From assembly GCA_963761305.1 (NCBI GenBank), contig CAVXGK010000002.1:2720001-2784000 (forward strand): 64,000 nucleotides of DNA, given 5' to 3'. This document shows, in pieces, positions 28,954 to 37,807 of this stretch. The translations under genes were made by a program, and so were the position numbers. Position 1 is the stretch's first letter. The number at the start of each line of letters is the position of its first letter. Origin of the DNA: an uncultured Gemmatimonadaceae bacterium (GTDB lineage: Bacteria; Gemmatimonadota; Gemmatimonadetes; Gemmatimonadales; Gemmatimonadaceae). The notes under the pieces are model-generated. The model saw only the letters and a list, made by a program, of their open reading frames with translations. It was not told the DNA's origin and made no database searches.

Positions 28954-30114
28954 TCAGCCCCGTTCGGACCAGTCGGCGAATTCCGGCGAGACGCCCATGC
29001 TGCGGCACGCGGCGCCGATCGCCAGTACGAGTTGCTCGATGTCCTCGGGAAACAGCCGGCCGATGTTGCCGATCCGGAACGTGTTCACCTCGGTGAGCTT
29101 TCCCGGATAGATGATGAATCCGCGGTCGCTCAGCTCGTTGTAGAAGCGGGTGAAGTCGAACCCATCGACCGCTGGATACCCGAATGCGGTGATGATGCAA
29201 CTCTGAACGGCGGGGCTGAGGAACGGCTCGAAGCCGAGTCGCGCCATGCCGGCGACGAGCGCGGCGTGGTTGGCGGCATACCGGTCGTGACGTCCGCGCA
29301 CGCCGCCCTCCGCGCGCAGTTCGTCCAAGGCCTGGTCGAACGCCAACAGGACGTGCGTCGGCGGCGTGAATCGGAACTGTCCGTTCTTCTCGAATCCTTT
29401 GAGCTGCGCCAGCAGGTCGAGGCTCAAGCTTCGCGCGATTCCTTCGCAGGCCAACAACACGTCACGGCGGCAGATCACGAACGAGAAGCCCGGCACTCCC
29501 TCGATGCACTTGTTGGACGACGAGACCAGGAAGTCGATGCCGCACGCTTCGAAGTCGATCGGCATGCCGCCGAAGCTGCTCATCGCGTCGACGATGTACA
29601 CCGCGTTGCGTCGTTTGACGACATGTCCGATCTCGTCAATCGGATTGAGAATGCCCGTCGTGGTCTCGCAGTGTATCACGACGACGTGAGTGACGTCGCC
29701 GTTTTCGGCCAGGCACGCGTCGACCGTCGCGGCGTCGACGGGCACGTCCTCGGCCCAGCGCAGCACGAGATGCGGAATTCTGGCGTGAACCAGCATCTGC
29801 ACCGTGCGCTCGCCGTAGGCGCCGTTCGCCAGCACGAGCACCTTGCCCGACGGCGGAACGCACGTCTGGAACACGGCGTCGACGCCGAACGTGCCGCTTC
29901 CCTGAAGTAGAACCGCCTCCCACCCCGTCGCGCGCGACACACCCGCGACGTCGAGCAGCCGGTCGCGGATGCGCCGAACGACTTCGTTGAACTCGAAGTG
30001 CCACGAGCCGGCGTCGTGCAGCATTGCCGTCTTGACCGTGGCGCTCGTGGTGAGCGGGCCTGGCGTGAACAGCAGCTTGTCCCGGGCCGAGCCCGCCCCT
30101 CGCCGCTCGGTCAT
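28954..30114 (-). CDS. phnW: 2-aminoethylphosphonate-pyruvate transaminase
   Basis: LFTPGPLTTS, QGSGTF, NGAYGER, HCETTTGILNP, DAMSSFG, SSNKCIEGVPG, QFRFTPPTH, IYPGKL. Confidence 0.95.
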   Translation of the reverse strand: MTERRGAGSARDKLLFTPGPLTTSATVKTAMLHDAGSWHFEFNEVVRRIRDRLLDVAGVSRATGWEAVLLQGSGTFGVDAVFQTCVPPSGKVLVLANGAYGERTVQMLVHARIPHLVLRWAEDVPVDAATVDACLAENGDVTHVVVIHCETTTGILNPIDEIGHVVKRRNAVYIVDAMSSFGGMPIDFEACGIDFLVSSSNKCIEGVPGFSFVICRRDVLLACEGIARSLSLDLLAQLKGFEKNGQFRFTPPTHVLLAFDQALDELRAEGGVRGRHDRYAANHAALVAGMARLGFEPFLSPAVQSCIITAFGYPAVDGFDFTRFYNELSDRGFIIYPGKLTEVNTFRIGNIGRLFPEDIEQLVLAIGAACRSMGVSPEFADWSERG

Positions 30115-30830
30115 CGCGCCGGAGTCAGTCCCTGCGTCAACACCACCTTCGGGAGGAGCCCGAGGTGCGAGATGAGGTGTGTGTGGGGATGGCGTCGCAA
30201 CTCTTCACCGGTGTGCGAGCCGTTCATCACGCCGACGACGAGTCCGCAACGAGCCGCTGCACCTTCCTCGAGATCGGCCGGCGTATCGCCAACCTTGGCG
30301 ACGGCGGCGGGATTCGTGACCCCCGTGAGCTCCATCGCCTTGAGAACGAGATCGGGGTGCGGGCGACCGCGCGCGACCTCGTCGCTCGCCACGGTCGCGT
30401 CGAGAAGCGAAGCGTTTTTCCAACGCAGGCGATCGAGAATCGTATCGAGGATCACCCGGCTGAACCCGGTATCGAGCGCCACGCGAACACCCGCGCGACG
30501 CAGCTCGGTGAGCGTCTCCTCGGCGTGCGGCATCGGCTCGACTCCCGCGCCTTGCCGGTAATGCGTGATCATGCGCTGAAGAAAATCGGCGTGGATTTCG
30601 TGGACCTGGCTCGTGGTCGCTCGCGTCGGTCCACCGTAGCGGTCGAGTAGCTTACCGATCGCCACCGGCTTGGCGATTCCCATCACCTGGTTCACTTCGT
30701 CGCGCGTCACCGCCACGCCGGCGCCGGCGAGCGCTTGGCGCAAGCAGTCGTTCACCGCGTCGTCGTCGCGGACGGTCGTGCCCGCAACGTCGAACACAAC
30801 CAATTCGATTCTCACGTCGCTGGAGTCCAT
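30111..30830 (-). CDS. Phosphonatase-like HAD hydrolase (PhnX-like)
   Basis: FDVAGTT, MGIAK (candidate Schiff-base Lys), TGF, GRPHPD, KVGDTPADLEEG; adjacent to phnW. Confidence 0.85.
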   Translation of the reverse strand: MDSSDVRIELVVFDVAGTTVRDDDAVNDCLRQALAGAGVAVTRDEVNQVMGIAKPVAIGKLLDRYGGPTRATTSQVHEIHADFLQRMITHYRQGAGVEPMPHAEETLTELRRAGVRVALDTGFSRVILDTILDRLRWKNASLLDATVASDEVARGRPHPDLVLKAMELTGVTNPAAVAKVGDTPADLEEGAAARCGLVVGVMNGSHTGEELRRHPHTHLISHLGLLPKVVLTQGLTPAR

Positions 30831-32149
30831 AGGCCCTCGTTCTTGAGTAAGCTGGCTGAGGATGTCGTGCGGTCGTACAGGAAAAGACAGAGGACCGCCG
30901 ACAGCCCCGCAAGCAACGCCAGTGAATCGAAGCCGAGCTGATACCCGCCGATGTCGAGCATGCGACCAAACGCCTGGCCGGACAAGATGGCGGCGAAGTA
31001 CCCAACTCCGTCCAGGATCCCGGCCACGGTCGCGACGTGCTCTTTGCCCTTGATCTCCACGGCGAACACCCCGGCGAGCAGACTGTACGGACCGTAGGCG
31101 AGAAATCCGATCGCGCCGACGACCGACGTGGCGAGCACGACGTTGCGCGCGGCGAGCGACGGAAGGACCACGATCGCGACGGCGAGCAACGACAGGAGCG
31201 TGAACAGCACCGACATCCGCCGGCGCTCACCGATCCGTCCGAATAGCCAGCCCAGCGTGACGATGCCGATCGCACCGCACGCGTCGAACGGCGTCGAGAG
31301 GAACGCGGCCATGCCGCTCGACATGGTCGGGCCCGCCGTCTTGAAGAAGTCGACGGTCCACGTGTTGAACGTCTCGCGCAACAGAGTGAGCGTGAAGCTG
31401 AGCGCGCAGACGATCCAGAATCGTCGCGCCGTCGACACGGCAACGACGCCTCGCCAGTCGATGCGAAGCGCGTCGCGCAGCGATCGGCGCTCTCGCTTCT
31501 CCGGGGCGCGCCCGCGCGGGAGAGCGATCCAGCAGATCGCCAGGATGAGCACCACGACGATCGACGGTCCGCTCATCACCCATCGCCAGTCGTTGCCGCT
31601 CCAGCGCGCGATGAAGCCGGCGAGGATCGTGGCGAGCACGCCGCCGAACACGAAGCTCAGCGACAGAATCCCCATCGCCAGCGCGATCGACCGCGACGAA
31701 AACCAGTCGGGGACTTGCTTGACCATCGCTCCCCAACCGGCCGAGCCGGCGAGGCGATTCAGGCTGTAGAACAACGTGAGCGTGCCCAACGAGCCCGCCA
31801 TTCCACCGAGCGCGCCAAACAGGCCCACGGCGCCGAGCGAGAGAAGGAATGCGACCCGCCCGCCGGCGCGGTCGATGAGCGGCCCGAAGATGAACTTTCC
31901 GACCATGTAAGCGGCCGTGCTGTAGCTGGCGATCGCGCCGATCTGGGCCTTGTTCAGCCGAAAAGCCTCGCCGATGAGCGGGTTCGCCACCGCGAAATTT
32001 TTTCGGCACAAATAAATGCCAACGTAGCCAAGCACGAGCACGCTTAGCCGCCCCCACTCCCGCGACGCCGGGGTCGCCCGTGGGTCGGGGTGGGGGTCGG
32101 GGTCGAGGTCGGGGGTTGGCGAGGTCGGTATTCGGGTCTTGGCAGCCAT
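30812..32149 (-). CDS. MFS transporter, OPA (GlpT/UhpT-like) family
   Basis: GYVGIYLCRKNF, YMVGKF, about 12 TM segments, GILDGVGY; first gene of the phn operon. Confidence 0.85.
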   Translation of the reverse strand: MAAKTRIPTSPTPDLDPDPHPDPRATPASREWGRLSVLVLGYVGIYLCRKNFAVANPLIGEAFRLNKAQIGAIASYSTAAYMVGKFIFGPLIDRAGGRVAFLLSLGAVGLFGALGGMAGSLGTLTLFYSLNRLAGSAGWGAMVKQVPDWFSSRSIALAMGILSLSFVFGGVLATILAGFIARWSGNDWRWVMSGPSIVVVLILAICWIALPRGRAPEKRERRSLRDALRIDWRGVVAVSTARRFWIVCALSFTLTLLRETFNTWTVDFFKTAGPTMSSGMAAFLSTPFDACGAIGIVTLGWLFGRIGERRRMSVLFTLLSLLAVAIVVLPSLAARNVVLATSVVGAIGFLAYGPYSLLAGVFAVEIKGKEHVATVAGILDGVGYFAAILSGQAFGRMLDIGGYQLGFDSLALLAGLSAVLCLFLYDRTTSSASLLKNEGLWTPAT

Positions 32150-32203: not shown

Positions 32204-32282
32204 GTATTACAGATCTGTCACGACTTTGCCACCCGCAGATCACGGCCGGGCACCCGGCCGGCGCCTGTCACCGGGGCGTCAT
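32204..32282 (+). promoter_or_regulatory. Pho-box-like 11-bp periodic direct repeats
   Basis: GTATTAC(32204), CTGTCAC(32215), TTGCCAC(32226), AGATCAC(32237); CTGTCAC(32265), GCGTCAT(32276). Resembles the PhoB half-site CTGTCAT. Confidence 0.6.
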
Positions 32283-32361: not shown

Positions 32362-33519
32362 ATGCGCGTGTGTCTCGTAACACCGTACGATTTGTCCCGC
32401 GATGGCGGAGTGAACCGTCACGTGCGCGCGCTGGCCGACGCGCTACGCGTGCTGGGGCACGAAGCGTCCGTGCTCGGACCGACGAGCGGGCCCGCGCCGT
32501 CCGACTGCGACGCGCTTCCCGGCATCGTGTCGCTCTCGGCGAACGGATCGAAAGCGCGCATCGGACTCCTCGTGACGCGACGCGCCGTGCAACGCTATCT
32601 CTACCGGGGAGCGTTCGACGTCGTACACGTCCACGAGCCGTGCATCCCCGGCATCGCGCGACACGCGGCCGCGAGCGACTTCGTGCCGCGCGTCGTCACG
32701 TTCCATACGTACGCGGAGCGGGAGTGCAGCGCCGTGCGGTTGCTGCGACGCGCGCTCGCTCGCCCGCTGCGCGACGTCGACCACGGAATCGCCGTGTCGC
32801 GCGTGGCCGAGGCGTTCGCGCGACGCGTCTTCGCCGGGTCGATTCAGCTCATTCCGAACGGCATCGACCTGGCCACGTTCGGCACGACGTCGCGCGCCCG
32901 GCCGGCTGGGCACAAGGAAGTCGAGCGGACGAATCAATCGTTACGCGTTCTTTTCGTCGGGCGCTACGACGAGCCCCGAAAGGGCCTGCGGCACCTGTTG
33001 GCGGCGGCGTGTCTGATCCGAGAATCTGGGCGCGCGATCGAGGTACGAATCGCCGGGCAGGGCAATCGCGACTCGTTCGCCGGGCTGTCCCAGCGCGCCG
33101 GCGCCGTGTTCCTCGGCAGGCTGAATGACCACGCGCTCGCCAACGAGTATCGAACCGCCGACGTCTTTTGCGCGCCGGCCACGCACGGCGAGAGCTTTGG
33201 GCTCGTACTCGTCGAAGCCATGGCCTGCGGATGCCCGGTCGTCGCCAGCGACATCGGCGGTTATCGAGAGGCGGCGAACGGTGCGGCGATGCTGGCGCCG
33301 CCGGCCGACCCGAGGGCGTTGGCGCACGCGCTGCGACGGATGGCGGACGACCATTTCGTTCGCCTGCAGGCGATCGGACACGGAGCCCGGCGTGCACAGG
33401 AGCTGTCGTGGACCTCGCTCGCCTCGGAAGTGGTTGGCGTGTACGAATCCGCGATGGCCGGCGAGGGGGGCGCTCAAACCGACGGCGAGGCGGTCGCCGC
33501 GGTGCGGGAGACGGCGTGA
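32362..33519 (+). CDS. Glycosyltransferase family 4 (PimA/Agt-like)
   Basis: MRVCLVTPY..GGV, VHVHEP, FVGR..EPRKG, ESFGLVLVEAMA. Confidence 0.92.
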   Translation: MRVCLVTPYDLSRDGGVNRHVRALADALRVLGHEASVLGPTSGPAPSDCDALPGIVSLSANGSKARIGLLVTRRAVQRYLYRGAFDVVHVHEPCIPGIARHAAASDFVPRVVTFHTYAERECSAVRLLRRALARPLRDVDHGIAVSRVAEAFARRVFAGSIQLIPNGIDLATFGTTSRARPAGHKEVERTNQSLRVLFVGRYDEPRKGLRHLLAAACLIRESGRAIEVRIAGQGNRDSFAGLSQRAGAVFLGRLNDHALANEYRTADVFCAPATHGESFGLVLVEAMACGCPVVASDIGGYREAANGAAMLAPPADPRALAHALRRMADDHFVRLQAIGHGARRAQELSWTSLASEVVGVYESAMAGEGGAQTDGEAVAAVRETA

Positions 33520-34265
33520 CGGCGCCCGCCGAGGAAACGTACGCACCGTTCGTCGCCAATTGGTCGCTGACGAAGGTGCTCATCCCGTTCGCGCACGCGA
33601 TGGCGGCGTACTTTCGGGCGCGCACGTTCGGGACGGAGCGGATCCCGCGAGACACGCCGGTGATCTTCGTCGGAAAGCACCCGCGAAGTTTTCTCTACAT
33701 CGAGACGTTGATTCTGGGGACGTACGCGTGGTGGGACAGAGACGGACCGCCGATCCGGGTGCTCGAGAGTCGCGCGACGTCGCTGCACCGCGCGCCCATC
33801 ATCGGCTGGATGCGGCGGCACGTCAACGCGCTGGCCGCGACGGCGGCGCACGCGCTTCAGGCGCTGAGCAGCGGCGAGTCGATCCTCATCTTCCCCGGCG
33901 GAGCGCGCGAGCTCTACGGTGAGCCGAATCGCCTGCGCTGGAACGGCCGCGACGGATTCGCTCGGCTGTCGATCGAGGCCCAGGTTCCCATCGTGCCGTT
34001 CGCGATCATCGGCGCCGACCGGCAGCATCCGGTTCGGCTGCCCGTCGGCAAGTCGAGTGTCTGGCTTCCGCCCTTTCCGCTGCCGGTGCGGTTGGACTAC
34101 CACTTTGGTGAGCCGATCGAAGCGCCGAGCGGGTGGACAGGTGGACCGGTGGACCGGTGGACCGGAGAAGAGGAACGACGAGTGGCGCGCGACCATGCCG
34201 CGCACGTCGAGCGGGTGACGCAGGCGCTCATCGACGACGGGCTGGCCGCGCGCAACCGACGATGA
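33516..34265 (+). CDS. Acyltransferase (PlsC superfamily, DGAT2/MGAT-like motifs)
   Basis: VIFVGKHPRS, FPGGARE, RDGFARLS....PIVP; 4-bp overlap with the GT4 gene. Confidence 0.85.
   Translation: MTAPAEETYAPFVANWSLTKVLIPFAHAMAAYFRARTFGTERIPRDTPVIFVGKHPRSFLYIETLILGTYAWWDRDGPPIRVLESRATSLHRAPIIGWMRRHVNALAATAAHALQALSSGESILIFPGGARELYGEPNRLRWNGRDGFARLSIEAQVPIVPFAIIGADRQHPVRLPVGKSSVWLPPFPLPVRLDYHFGEPIEAPSGWTGGPVDRWTGEEERRVARDHAAHVERVTQALIDDGLAARNRR
34132..34165 (+). repeat. 8-bp tandem repeat (GGTGGACM)x4 inside the acyltransferase gene
   Basis: GGTGGACA GGTGGACC GGTGGACC GGTGGACC GG. Confidence 0.85.
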
Positions 34266-34274
34266 GGCGCGACG

Positions 34275-35033
34275 TTGCGATCAGCTCCGGTGCTGGACAC
34301 GAGCCGCTGGTACTACCGATTCGGCTACGTAGGAGCGACGCGCCTTCTGTCGGCCTATCATCGCACGCGCGTGCGGAGCCGCGAGGGCGAGTTCGTTCCT
34401 CCAACCGGGCCGTGCATCTACGTCGCGCACCACGGCGCCGGCTACTTCACGCTCGACCTCGTCGTCGCCTGCTACCAGCTCGGCTGGCGAGCGTGGCTGG
34501 AACGGCGCGGCGCGGCCTCCCCGACGCGAATCGTCGCGTCGCGCGACCATACGATGGAACGTGTCGTGCCCGGGCTCCGTACGGCCAAACGACACGTCGG
34601 CATCATCGACCCGTCGGAGGACGCCTGCGTTGAAGTGCTCGAGCGCGGTGAACAATTGTTGATCACGCCGGGCGGCCGGCGCGAGGCGCGCCCGGAAGCG
34701 CGCGACTATCGGCTGAAGTGGGCCGATCGGTTCGGTTTCGCGCGTGTGGCGCTCCGCACCGGCGTGCCGATTTTTCCGCTCGCGGTGGTCGGCGGATTCG
34801 AGGCCTATCCCGGATGGTCGCGAGGGAAAGCGTCGTTCTGGTCGCCCTTCCCTCTCCCCGTGCGTCTCGACGTCGCACTCGGCGCACCGATCGCCGTTTC
34901 GCCCTCGCAACATCCCGACGCCGGCGCGGTGCGACGGCTGCACGAGCGCGCATGGCAGGCCACGCAGTCCCTCTACGACGAGATCATCGCCGAGCGCCGA
35001 GGAAAGGTCGCGCTCGCGCCTCCGCGCGCATGA
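34275..35033 (+). CDS. Second acyltransferase (PlsC superfamily, DGAT2/MGAT-like motifs)
   Basis: IYVAHHGAGYFTLD, TPGGRRE, RFGFARVALRTGVPIFP; shares PFPLPVRLD with the first paralogue. Confidence 0.85.
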   Translation: MRSAPVLDTSRWYYRFGYVGATRLLSAYHRTRVRSREGEFVPPTGPCIYVAHHGAGYFTLDLVVACYQLGWRAWLERRGAASPTRIVASRDHTMERVVPGLRTAKRHVGIIDPSEDACVEVLERGEQLLITPGGRREARPEARDYRLKWADRFGFARVALRTGVPIFPLAVVGGFEAYPGWSRGKASFWSPFPLPVRLDVALGAPIAVSPSQHPDAGAVRRLHERAWQATQSLYDEIIAERRGKVALAPPRA

Positions 35034-35695
35034 GCGCCGAGCGCACGCTCATCGCCAGCGACTGGCATCTCAGCCGATACAGCTCGACCGCCGCGTCGAC
35101 GCTGGCGTTCGCGTTTCTCGAGCGGGCGCGCGACGCCGGCGACCGGGTGATTCTCAACGGCGACATCTTCGAGGGACTTTTCGAGCCCGTCGCGCTGTCG
35201 GAAGAGGCGCATCCGCACATCGTGGCGTTGATGACCGCGATGAGTCGCACCGGTCAGCTGCGCCGAACGGAAGGAAACCACGATCCCGGCGCCGGTGCGG
35301 CGACGATCGTGCTCGACCACGAGACGCTCGGCCCCGTTCTCGTGATGCACGGCCACGTCGCGGACCAGCTTCGCACGTCGCCGATCGGCAGGCTCGGCGA
35401 CTTCATCTCGCGGCGGTTCGGATGGATCCCGGCCGTGCGCCTCGCCGCGCGCCTCGCCGAACAGAGCGCGTCGCTCACCGCCCATCGCATCGAGCGCATC
35501 TTCAGCCAGCGCTGCCGCGACATCGTGCGGCGGAGTGCCGGCGCATTCGGCGTGTTCGGGCACATTCACCGGCAGTATCTGGTGGCCGGCGACCAGTACG
35601 CGAACGCCGGTCATCTCACCGACCAGCGGCTCGAGTTCATCGCGATCGGTCGGCGCGGCGCGGAGGCTTCACGGCTCGACGTGTCCGAGTTGTGA
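35030..35695 (+). CDS. LpxH/PlcP-like metallophosphoesterase
   Basis: SDWHL, NGDIFE, GNHD, HGH, GHIH, YANAG; ATGA overlap. Confidence 0.8.
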   Translation: MSAERTLIASDWHLSRYSSTAASTLAFAFLERARDAGDRVILNGDIFEGLFEPVALSEEAHPHIVALMTAMSRTGQLRRTEGNHDPGAGAATIVLDHETLGPVLVMHGHVADQLRTSPIGRLGDFISRRFGWIPAVRLAARLAEQSASLTAHRIERIFSQRCRDIVRRSAGAFGVFGHIHRQYLVAGDQYANAGHLTDQRLEFIAIGRRGAEASRLDVSEL

Positions 35696-36213
35696 GTCGA
35701 GAAACGGCGGCGGCGTTCGTCGCCCACTGGGGTTACGTGGGTGTGTTCGCGGCGATTTTCATCGAGGAGGCCGGGGTACCGTTGCCCGTGCCCGGCGATT
35801 TGTTCATCGCGGCGCTCGGGGCCGTGGGGCATGCGAGGGCCTCGAGCTTCGCGATGACGACGCTCGTCGTCGTCGTCGCGACGGTGGGAGGATCGGCGAT
35901 CTTGTTCGAGATGTCGCGGCGCCTCGGCCAGCCGATGATGATAAAAATCGGCCGGCGGTTCGGGTTCAACGAGGATCGCGCCGTTCGCGTCGAGAAGTGG
36001 CTGGATCGCCGCGGAGCGTACGCGATCATCCTGGGACGCCTCACGCCGGGGCTGCGGATCGTGTTGACCGTGGCCGCGGGCGCGCTTCGAATGCGGCGGG
36101 ACGTCTTCATGCTCGGAACAGCGGTCGCGTCGGTGATCTGGGCGACGATCTACTACTGGCTCGGCTATTTGCTCAGCGCGGGTGCGAGCGCGGCGTTCGG
36201 CTCGCACGCCTGA
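35692..36213 (+). CDS. DedA family membrane protein
   Basis: IEEAGVPLPVPGD, GRLTPGLR; GTGA overlap. Confidence 0.9.
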   Translation: MSRETAAAFVAHWGYVGVFAAIFIEEAGVPLPVPGDLFIAALGAVGHARASSFAMTTLVVVVATVGGSAILFEMSRRLGQPMMIKIGRRFGFNEDRAVRVEKWLDRRGAYAIILGRLTPGLRIVLTVAAGALRMRRDVFMLGTAVASVIWATIYYWLGYLLSAGASAAFGSHA

Positions 36214-36234: not shown

Positions 36235-37695
36235 CTAAGGCAAACGAAAGACGTCCAGCACGCCGCTCTTGCTGTGGTTGTTGGCGTTTCCCTCTGGGAC
36301 CGCGACCATCCCGTCGACGACGATCGGGCTGTTCCAGTGTCCGCCGCCGCAGTCGAGACGCGCGACCTGGTGGCCGGTCTCGGGGACGTAGACGCGCAGC
36401 CCGCCGCCCGGATCGTAGACGTAGAGCAGTCCGCCGGCGACCACGGGGCTCGTGCCGGGATTTCCGTTGCTCCACGCCGAGTGAAGCTGTCCGCCGCTCA
36501 CCGTCCACGCGGCGGTTCCGCTGCCGTTGGCGGCGAACATCCACGTCGTCCCGGTGGACGCGTGCCACACAGCGGGCGCCGAAAAGAGGCCGGCGCTGGC
36601 CGGCGCGGGAACCATCTGCTGTTCGCCGCCGCGATGCGACCCAGCCTGCCGCGTCGCCGCGAGGCCCAGCACGCGAATCGATCCGTCCTTGCCGCTCTGG
36701 GCCACGAGGCCGCCGCCGAGCAGCACGGGTGACGTCGATCCGACGTCCACGTCGCCGGCGTTGAGCGCTTCTGTATTAGAGGGTGTATAGTTGCCGACGA
36801 GATGGGTCGCGTTGGCGTCCAGCTCGAGCGTCGCGTCGCCCCAGTTGGTGATCCCGTCCCACTTGCCGTTTCCGGTGGCGACGAAGATGTCGCCGGTCGC
36901 CGTGTCGACGACGGCGCCCGCCCGTCCCCAGATGGCCGCATCGCTCTCGCCGCACGACGCCGGCGCGATCAACCCCGCGCGGTCGCTGCACAGCGCGTTC
37001 CAGACATTGAGGAGCTTGCCGCTCGAGCCGTCGATCACGGCCACGTGCCCCTGGTACGGCGGCGCGTCGCCGATGTAGCCGCCGGTGGTCGCGATCACGT
37101 GCCCACGATCGTAGTTCAGCGCCGAGGCGATCTTTTCGCGCGCCGGCAAGAGTGTGATCGAAGTGGTCCAGACGGCGTGTCCGTCGGAGAGCGCCAGCTT
37201 GCGGATGTCTCCCTCGGGCGACGCGGCATAAACGGATTGGCGGTCCGGATCGGCGACGGGCGTCGCGGTCGTGATCTGGTACGAGCCGCTGAAGGTCGAG
37301 TACGCGCTCGGCGTGAACTCCCAGAGTATCGAACCGTCGTTGGCGTCGATGGTGATCGTCTTGCCGTAGGTCGTGGTGACGACGAAGACATCGTGGGCGG
37401 CGCCGTTGACCTGGACGGCATGGAGATAGATCGGCGACGCGTCGACGGTTCCGTCGAGCGCGATCTGTTGCACCTTGAGGGTGCCGACGTTGGTGGAGTC
37501 GAGGCGAGTGGGGTCCGGCGACGCGCTCGAGCGCGCGGCGTCGTAGCCGAAGCGGGTCCAGTCGTGGGAGCTCGACGGGTTGGGAGGCTGGCCGTCGGGA
37601 GGCTTCGGCGCGTTGCCGTCACCGGCGGGGGCGTTTTCGGAGCAGGCGAGCGCCAAGAGCGCCGAGGCGAAGAGAGCGCGAAGGCCGAGCGTCAT
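36235..37695 (-). CDS. PQQ-like beta-propeller lipoprotein
   Basis: Lipobox ALAC; DWTRFGYD, DANDGSILW, ATGNG, SPVV/SPIV repeats. Confidence 0.85.
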   Translation of the reverse strand: MTLGLRALFASALLALACSENAPAGDGNAPKPPDGQPPNPSSSHDWTRFGYDAARSSASPDPTRLDSTNVGTLKVQQIALDGTVDASPIYLHAVQVNGAAHDVFVVTTTYGKTITIDANDGSILWEFTPSAYSTFSGSYQITTATPVADPDRQSVYAASPEGDIRKLALSDGHAVWTTSITLLPAREKIASALNYDRGHVIATTGGYIGDAPPYQGHVAVIDGSSGKLLNVWNALCSDRAGLIAPASCGESDAAIWGRAGAVVDTATGDIFVATGNGKWDGITNWGDATLELDANATHLVGNYTPSNTEALNAGDVDVGSTSPVLLGGGLVAQSGKDGSIRVLGLAATRQAGSHRGGEQQMVPAPASAGLFSAPAVWHASTGTTWMFAANGSGTAAWTVSGGQLHSAWSNGNPGTSPVVAGGLLYVYDPGGGLRVYVPETGHQVARLDCGGGHWNSPIVVDGMVAVPEGNANNHSKSGVLDVFRLP

Positions 37696-37807
37696 GTGGA
37701 CCTCGTCGAACAAGCCGTTGATGCTGCGGAAGAGCGAGTCGTTGGCGTCGACGAAGGCCTGGACGCGACGACCCGTGTCTTAGACCTGGTCCTGCGTATT
37801 TCTCAAA

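Follow-up and report, generated by a model that had tools for sequence, protein, structure and literature searches.

A conserved five-gene operon of an uncultured Gemmatimonadaceae bacterium predicted to make a mannosylated, acylated inositol lipid

The DNA analysed here is a 64,000-nucleotide stretch (the window) from an uncultured Gemmatimonadaceae bacterium (contig CAVXGK010000002.1, positions 2,720,001 to 2,784,000). It carries five consecutive plus-strand genes specifying a GT4 glycosyltransferase (GT4), two acyltransferases (AT1 and AT2), a metallophosphoesterase and a DedA membrane protein. The five-gene unit is a real conserved operon, and apparently one that is undescribed so far, no description of it having been found in a literature search which covered mainly open-access articles, most matches being judged by title and the start of the abstract. 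The shared core of its function is probably the synthesis of a mannosylated, acylated inositol lipid. In a fuller version, to which we give rather less than an even chance, this lipid would be built on a phosphatidylinositol (PI) carrier and the phosphatidyl part would then be removed, leaving a phosphorus-free or phosphate-poor glycolipid. The boldest reading, with a probability of about 0.35, is that these genes travel as a mobile set and make a diacyl mannosyl-inositol free of phosphorus on a PI carrier. It would comprise a new phosphodiesterase family and two new sugar/inositol acyltransferases, be present in cultured Anaeromyxobacter, be common to some Gemmatimonadaceae and Acidobacteriota, and have been put under PhoB in the clade of the window.

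Conservation of the operon and its two architectures

The surroundings of AT2 homologues were compared in 74 loci (two genome contigs, four genomes of the phylum and 68 metagenomes), of which 61 remain distinct when grouped at 97% DNA identity; all counts refer only to loci long enough to judge. The closest named relatives, with 79–81% identity, are Gemmatimonadaceae metagenome-assembled genomes. A phosphoesterase gene follows AT2 in 50/50 distinct loci and GT4 lies upstream of AT2 in 39/39, AT1 being present in 34 of the 39 with GT4. The phosphoesterase gene is followed by a DedA or MMPL gene in 37/38. Synteny, which the first-pass annotation of this DNA had left to be checked across Gemmatimonadota, holds for the core as a unit across the 61 distinct loci, but within that phylum it extends to only 5 of 401 genomes, AT2 and the phosphoesterase occurring in the identical five; the pair was found in neither of the two other genomes of the host genus. 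The carriers are Myxococcota, Gemmatimonadota and Acidobacteriota-labelled genomes, the cultured Anaeromyxobacter dehalogenans and A. oryzae among them. In A. oryzae the accessions of GT4 (BDG03259) and the phosphoesterase (BDG03256) are three apart, which fits two acyltransferases between them. In a plasmid collection the phosphoesterase had no match and AT2 had seven weak actinobacterial matches.

Two architectures can be distinguished. Type A, that of the window, reads GT4-AT1-AT2-phosphoesterase-DedA. Type B reads ino1-CDP-alcohol phosphatidyltransferase-GT4-(AT1)-AT2-phosphoesterase-MMPL, often with a convergent DedA gene after MMPL. The DedA gene stands within the operon in 15/38 loci and is convergent after MMPL in 9 of the 14 long MMPL loci. 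Inositol genes, that is ino1 and/or a gene resembling phosphatidylinositol phosphate (PIP) synthase, are upstream in 13/13 type B loci; among the 29 distinct loci that extend for 500 nt or more ahead of GT4, one or both stand directly upstream of it in 18. In a GT4 tree, which has long reference branches and was used solely to place the ino1-type loci with Anaeromyxobacter, the GT4s of type B cluster with those from the cultured Anaeromyxobacter.

Irregular forms of the gene order were also seen. In loci L047 and L048 the phosphoesterase gene stands about 1.7 kb away from AT2, and one 723-residue protein (P0242) consists of AT1 and AT2 fused in frame, with a garbled link into the phosphoesterase that is probably a frameshift read-through.

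Predicted activities of the encoded proteins

The best match of GT4 in the PDB is PimA of Mycobacterium smegmatis (E-value=1.4e-56); the next family follows at 2e-22, and MshA at 1e-17. The first-pass annotation had likened it to Agt, a glycosyltransferase acting on diacylglycerol (DAG), but PimA, to which it is about 35% identical, is the closest characterised sequence: GT4 scores 182 bits (E-value=2.6e-57) against Tsukamurella PimA and 60.8 bits (9e-14) against the Agt-type reference, a plcP-adjacent Sphingomonas GT4 so called from its context. Many homologues are labelled PI alpha-mannosyltransferase by their sources, and individual Anaeromyxobacter GT4s are already automatically annotated as such. 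Residues Y9, G16, N61, S63, R201, K207, E277 and E285 are invariant in the 32 sequences compared, with R66 in 31/32 and D256 in 30/32; the NGS-x-x-R loop is conserved, as are the nucleotide-sugar residues. The equivalents of PimA Y9, G16, N63, S65, R68, R196, R201, K202, D253, E274 and E282, which presumably take part in inositol and GDP-mannose binding, are kept, and those of Q18, Y62 and K256 differ. From these resemblances GT4 is likely a GDP-mannose:inositol-lipid mannosyltransferase, with mannose as its likely donor sugar. The GDP-mannose pathway of the host gave a weak match (28.2 versus 23.6 bits).

A second PimA-like GT4 of the host (C2:739463-740563) precedes an LPG_synthase_TM flippase-like gene (L091, G000:C2:737752-740563) and has homologues in 30 of 121 genomes of the phylum; this locus is possibly a native inositol-glycolipid pathway.

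The acceptor is suggested by the inositol genes, whose place as the first genes of related operons, ino1 together with a PIP-synthase-like gene, points to an inositol lipid. The CDP-alcohol transferases of type B have PIP synthases as their best PDB matches, and the catalytic motif DxxDGxxAR...GxxxDxxxD is intact in all 16 ORFs returned by the motif search. In the window no PIP synthase gene adjoins GT4; the host encodes one elsewhere, directly upstream of ino1 (C2:432194-434220; 177.7 bits, cut-off 170), and type A hosts may have dropped both genes from the operon because they are already encoded elsewhere. Across the phylum ino1 occurs in 378/401 genomes, a tally including the unpublished genome G157, and the PgpA family has no match in the host genome, which is 93% complete, with the queries used. 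Inositol phospholipids may be a trait of the phylum.

A different inositol acceptor is also conceivable. GT4 could act on soluble inositol-1-phosphate, as MshA does, or on an inositol sphingolipid, the acyltransferases then lipidating the product and the phosphoesterase dephosphorylating it, or the sugar could be other than mannose. Three distinct loci (L038, L060 and L068) have ino1 upstream of GT4 and lack an intervening PIP synthase, a helical insert of the LpxH type could hold a diacylated sugar phosphate, and PMC9246714 reports ceramide phosphoinositol from Myxococcus xanthus. However, GT4 is far nearer to PimA than to MshA, the PIP-synthase-like gene stands directly upstream of it in 15/29 loci, and L057 and L065 have that gene without ino1, so that we hold this alternative to be distinctly unlikely.

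AT1 and AT2 are paralogues (hhalign probability 99.96). AT2 exceeds the cut-off of DAGAT (PF03982; 34.8 versus 22 bits) over part of its length (residues 99–182), and AT1 falls under it. The first-pass annotation had described both as devoid of a clean HxxxxD and as carrying DGAT2/MGAT signatures. The signatures are present, PGG-x-RE and R-x-GF-x-R being conserved in both proteins, but the DGAT2-type HPHG gives way to a conserved motif, H-x7-E in AT1 (39/39) and H-x7-D in AT2 (36/36). The AT2 model (pLDDT 87.8) finds its best fold match in PlsC of Thermotoga maritima (E-value=1e-6) and a weaker one in PatA (2e-3), and the PDB sequence search gave weak AT2 matches only. Neither protein has a meaningful BLAST or profile match to Tsukamurella PatA. 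We take both to be acyltransferases of the PlsC/MGAT fold, the acceptor being suggested by their gene context.

The phosphoesterase model (pLDDT 90.9) is nearest in fold to LpxH, with Z 18.1 and an rmsd of 3.8 for 209 aligned residues, the next match having Z 14.5. Its metal ligands (D11, H13, D45, N83, H84, H107, H178 and H180) are canonical and invariant in 46/46 sequences, so that the "variant motifs" of the first-pass annotation are not degenerate; the motifs DxH, GD, GNHD, HG and HxH, likewise found in 46/46, are common to many metallophosphoesterases and not diagnostic of PlcP. Identity to LpxH is 17–23%, and assignment to that enzyme was rejected on its NCBIfam score (16.8 bits, cut-off 134), on H84 in all 46 sequences, which gives GNHD where LpxH presumably has GNRD, and on the separate lpxH-like gene that is the third gene of this kind in the host. 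PlcP-type proteins, whose identities like those of the Agt references come from annotation and context, are 26–28% identical to it, below the roughly 35–50% expected between members of the PlcP clade. The phosphoesterase profile scores them best (2e-11 to 5e-7; LpxH 1e-6), but the PlcP clade (SH-aLRT 98) excludes the phosphoesterase and includes another host gene, and the AU test does not reject a sister or joint clade of the two (p-AU 0.13). The phosphoesterase forms an LpxH-fold clade of its own. The family is isolated: among 1.84 billion representatives, four proteins were better than 1e-80 and the next full-length match, past fragments, stood at 4e-14. The PDB sequence search returned no match, the phosphoesterase profile found SbcD/Mre11 only, and in the ESM Atlas the matches were clusters of generic metallophosphoesterases.

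The first-pass annotation had combined these genes in a model in which a PlcP-like phospholipase frees DAG, the Agt-like GT4 glycosylates it and the acyltransferases acylate it, under PhoB control. Pho-type boxes in the closest clade, GNHD together with the profile scores and the p-AU value, and the plcP-glycosyltransferase-DedA clusters of Alphaproteobacteria favour that route. It is nevertheless very improbable, since GT4 is PimA-like, the phosphoesterase shows low identity to PlcP and does not fall in its clade, the inositol genes of the 13 MMPL-type loci are left unexplained, and a true plcP (45.6% identical to the Sinorhizobium meliloti protein and within the PlcP clade) is already present elsewhere in the host, preceding a glycosyltransferase gene and served by a sense-strand Pho box. 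What endures of the model is its outline of a putative lipid-modifying operon with one glycosylation, two acylations and a flippase candidate, which the conserved gene families match. The host plcP with its PF13528 glycosyltransferase and Pho box (L134, G000:C2:1984546-1986394) represents the conventional kind of remodelling pair for phosphate starvation, here in Gemmatimonadota.

The DedA protein scores 71.2 bits with PF09335 (VTT; cut-off 33.9) and is UptA-like but far under the cut-off of that family. The type B MMPL protein is nearest to the HpnN/BstA lipid transporters, below cut-off, and no MMPL homologue was found in the host genome with the queries used.

Proposed pathway and phosphate control

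Gene content and conservation were observed directly, and from them we infer every chemical step of the preferred pathway, that of a diacyl mannosyl-inositol assembled on a PI carrier. The host genes for PIP synthase and ino1 would supply PI or PIP. GT4, judged by its family and residues, would add mannose from GDP-mannose to the inositol ring, after which AT2 and AT1 would attach one fatty acid each to hydroxyl groups of mannose or inositol; where a lineage lacks AT1, the product would carry a single added acyl chain. In the least certain step the phosphoesterase would cut the phosphodiester of the decorated lipid, releasing DAG or phosphatidic acid and yielding a phosphorus-free or phosphate-poor diacyl mannosyl-inositol. 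DedA may then flip the product, and in Anaeromyxobacter the HpnN/MMPL-type transporter may move it outward. A lipid-cleaving role of the phosphoesterase is suggested by its nearest fold, LpxH, and its nearest sequences, PlcP-type, because both of these enzymes cut beside a diacyl lipid, and a phosphate-saving product is consistent with the Pho-type boxes.

Alternatively, the product may stay a phospholipid, namely an acylated phosphatidylinositol mannoside (PIM) resembling Ac1PIM1 or Ac2PIM1, with the phosphoesterase as a new family of PIP (or mannosyl-PIP) phosphatase removing the inositol 3-phosphate. The operon of the Anaeromyxobacter type includes a gene for a PIP-synthase-like enzyme and has no phosphoesterase other than this one, and the host lacks a gene of the PgpA family, to which the Bacteroides PIP phosphatase belongs. 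PIP needs dephosphorylation to PI, as stated in the accessible part of PMC9246714, and the gene set parallels the actinobacterial pgsA-patA-pimA (PMC3229680). Yet ino1 is nearly ubiquitous in the phylum and the phosphoesterase occurs in five genomes, so most members presumably make PI without it; it is kept in every transferred copy, whereas ino1 and the PIP synthase are dropped; and a phospholipid product would fit Pho induction poorly, though repression would suit it. Because the phosphoesterase travels with GT4 and AT2 (50/50 loci, and the same 5/401 genomes) and not with ino1 (378/401), it is unlikely to be a general PIP phosphatase, and this company favours a reaction that takes place once the lipid is decorated. 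We consider the phospholipid alternative somewhat unlikely, though it is the nearest competitor of the preferred pathway.

Pho-type boxes were sought with a motif derived from the regions upstream of 28 pstS genes of the family (L105-L133). This motif, CGTGACA-N4-CGTTACA on the sense strand, is apparently the Pho box of Gemmatimonadaceae and approximates the reverse complement of what we take to be the E. coli consensus, and in the host it scores 16.1 bits at pstS, 19.1 at pit and 11.2 at plcP. It replaced an E. coli-type consensus, which gave 49 genome sites at a score of at least 12/14 and missed pstS. The 212-bp intergenic region upstream of GT4 scores 11.1 (proximal) and 11.0 bits (distal) on the minus strand and 9.9 bits (distal) on the plus strand; three such sites arose in 0/3000 shuffles, which were composition-only and used a 9.8-bit threshold set after the scores were seen. 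In L002 and L081 the spacing between both repeats and GT4 is unchanged, and since the divergent neighbours there are unrelated, the repeats appear tied to the GT4 promoter. The position of the proximal box is kept in L001, L002 and L081, and a conserved TACRTT about 21 bp downstream of it may be a -10 element; a sigma-70 scan found no promoter. PhoB likely binds upstream of the operon in the clade of the window, as activator or repressor. The Pho-box-like repeats of the first-pass annotation are thus real and beyond chance, but they are confined to the closest clade and mainly antisense, and phosphate control is not a general feature of the operon because the boxes are missing from most distant loci.

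Several observations weigh against the preferred pathway. Neither ino1 nor a PIP synthase gene is beside the operon in any of the nine distinct type A loci, and the type B CDP-alcohol transferase, at 102 bits, is below the NCBIfam PIP-synthase cut-off of 170. Q18 and Y62 of PimA are replaced by N and A in GT4, so both sugar and acceptor could differ, and the PimA-like family has more than one role, because the host has a second PimA-like gene. GNHD occurs in monoesterases and diesterases alike, and a cleavage of the PlcP type would leave phosphate on the inositol, requiring a further phosphatase. Lastly, the two best Pho sites read away from GT4, toward the divergent MFS-phnX-phnW operon, which the boxes may serve, and boxes are missing in seven distant type A loci (maximum 8.1 bits) and in nine of ten type B loci.

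Gene layout, known systems and significance

The arrangement given by the first-pass annotation was recovered from the assembly, the five tightly coupled ORFs (Table 1) having three 4-bp overlaps and one 9-bp gap, and the motifs it quoted are all present in the acyltransferase and phosphoesterase ORFs. Family profiles identified GT4, Acyltransferase (PF01553) for both AT1 and AT2, and VTT/DedA, with Metallophos_2 under its cut-off.

Table 1. Coordinates of the operon and of the upstream Pho-type sites in the window
Feature	Position	Strand	Description
GT4	32362..33519	+	385 aa, PimA-like glycosyltransferase
AT1	33516..34265	+	249 aa acyltransferase, PlsC/MGAT-like, KHPxxxLYxE (H-x7-E)
AT2	34262..35033	+	acyltransferase, HGAGYxxxD (H-x7-D); open frame 34275 (TTG)-35033, 252 aa
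Phosphoesterase	35030..35695	+	221 aa, LpxH-fold metallophosphoesterase, helical insert, GNHD motif
DedA/VTT membrane protein	35692..36213	+	173 aa, flippase candidate
Distal Pho-type half sites (four, 11-bp spacing)	32204..32243	.	GTATTAC, CTGTCAC, TTGCCAC, AGATCAC (read on +)
Proximal Pho-type box	32265..32282	.	CTGTCAC-N4-GCGTCAT (read on +)

The 9-bp gap is likely not the natural state but a fourth 4-bp overlap disturbed by one extra base, because an alternative AT2 start, ATG at 34262 (MRRDV...), overlaps the AT1 stop, near-identical AT2 proteins have 256 residues and begin MTRDV, and one base is absent at 34277/34278 in contigs from two of four soil sequencing runs. The natural start of AT2 is likely this ATG, with one extra base near 34277 in the present assembly, be it an assembly error or a strain change. 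The TTG start at 34275 would shorten AT2 by four residues only.

Within AT1 a tandem 8-bp repeat, GGTGGAC[AC] (34132-34166), forms an in-frame insert that is missing in the five relatives compared; 94 arrays of this type occur in the host genome, both strands counted, as a dispersed repeat which enters coding regions. Downstream, a convergent minus-strand gene for a beta-propeller (PQQ_2-like) lipoprotein (36235-37713) ends 21 bp from the DedA stop and was found in none of the related loci. Upstream, the divergent minus-strand operon (28954-32149) comprises an MFS gene (organophosphate antiporter-like), a phnX-like HAD gene and phnW, and points to the use of 2-aminoethylphosphonate with MFS in place of an ABC transporter. 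PhnW is over its cut-off and the PhnX-like protein has 217.9 bits against a cut-off of 218.9. This operon is not linked to GT4 in L001, L002 or L081.

Among known enzymes LpxH offers the nearest solved fold to the phosphoesterase, which departs from it in GNHD and in sequence. Among known lipids, the product predicted from the parts list resembles the diacyl myo-inositol monomannoside of Propionibacterium, a phosphorus-free lipid with mannose and two acyl chains on inositol, which was reportedly described by Prottey and Ballou in 1968 and by Shaw and Dinglinger in 1969. The actinobacterial pgsA1-patA-pimA operon (Rv2612c-Rv2610c) likewise unites a PIP synthase, a PimA-type GT4 and an acyltransferase. 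Here, in contrast, the two acyltransferases are of the PlsC/MGAT type and unlike PatA in sequence, and ino1, the LpxH-fold phosphoesterase, DedA and MMPL are added, in Myxococcota, Gemmatimonadota and Acidobacteriota-labelled hosts. PlcP-Agt remodelling, as far as the available part of PMC4796936 describes it, shares an LpxH-fold GNHD esterase beside a GT4 and, with the closest clade, Pho-type boxes, and DedA can accompany plcP; it differs from the present operon with its non-PlcP phosphoesterase, non-Agt GT4, inositol genes and two acyltransferases, in a host with a separate plcP-glycosyltransferase pair. Bacteroides BT_1522-BT_1526 also clusters genes for MIPS, a PIP synthase and a phosphatase outside Actinobacteria, but the phosphatase is of the PgpA family, and the accessible part of PMC9246714 names no PimA, acyltransferase or exporter there. 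The operon would thus work like PIM synthesis and yet is a member of neither the pgsA-patA-pimA nor the plcP-agt systems.

If the phosphoesterase is a PIP phosphatase, it would represent the second such family after the PgpA type of Bacteroides, such a phosphatase having been unidentified before the work in PMC9246714, according to the part of it available. If it is a diesterase, the operon would provide the first genes known for making an inositol mannoside free of phosphorus. One of AT1 and AT2 could serve as a model of inositol-ring acylation, for which we know of no mycobacterial enzyme. The mannosylation and acylation of inositol lipids have been described chiefly in mycobacteria, and glycolipids of the PIM type count as a hallmark of Actinobacteria. 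Inositol acylmannoside diol lipids in Thermomicrobia give PIM-like lipids outside Actinobacteria a precedent. A complete and conserved PIM-like pathway with its own acyltransferases and exporter in diderm soil bacteria would, if true, change the picture of PIM-type lipids as actinobacterial and affect their use as soil biomarkers, and the cultured, non-pathogenic carriers A. dehalogenans and A. oryzae make the pathway directly testable.

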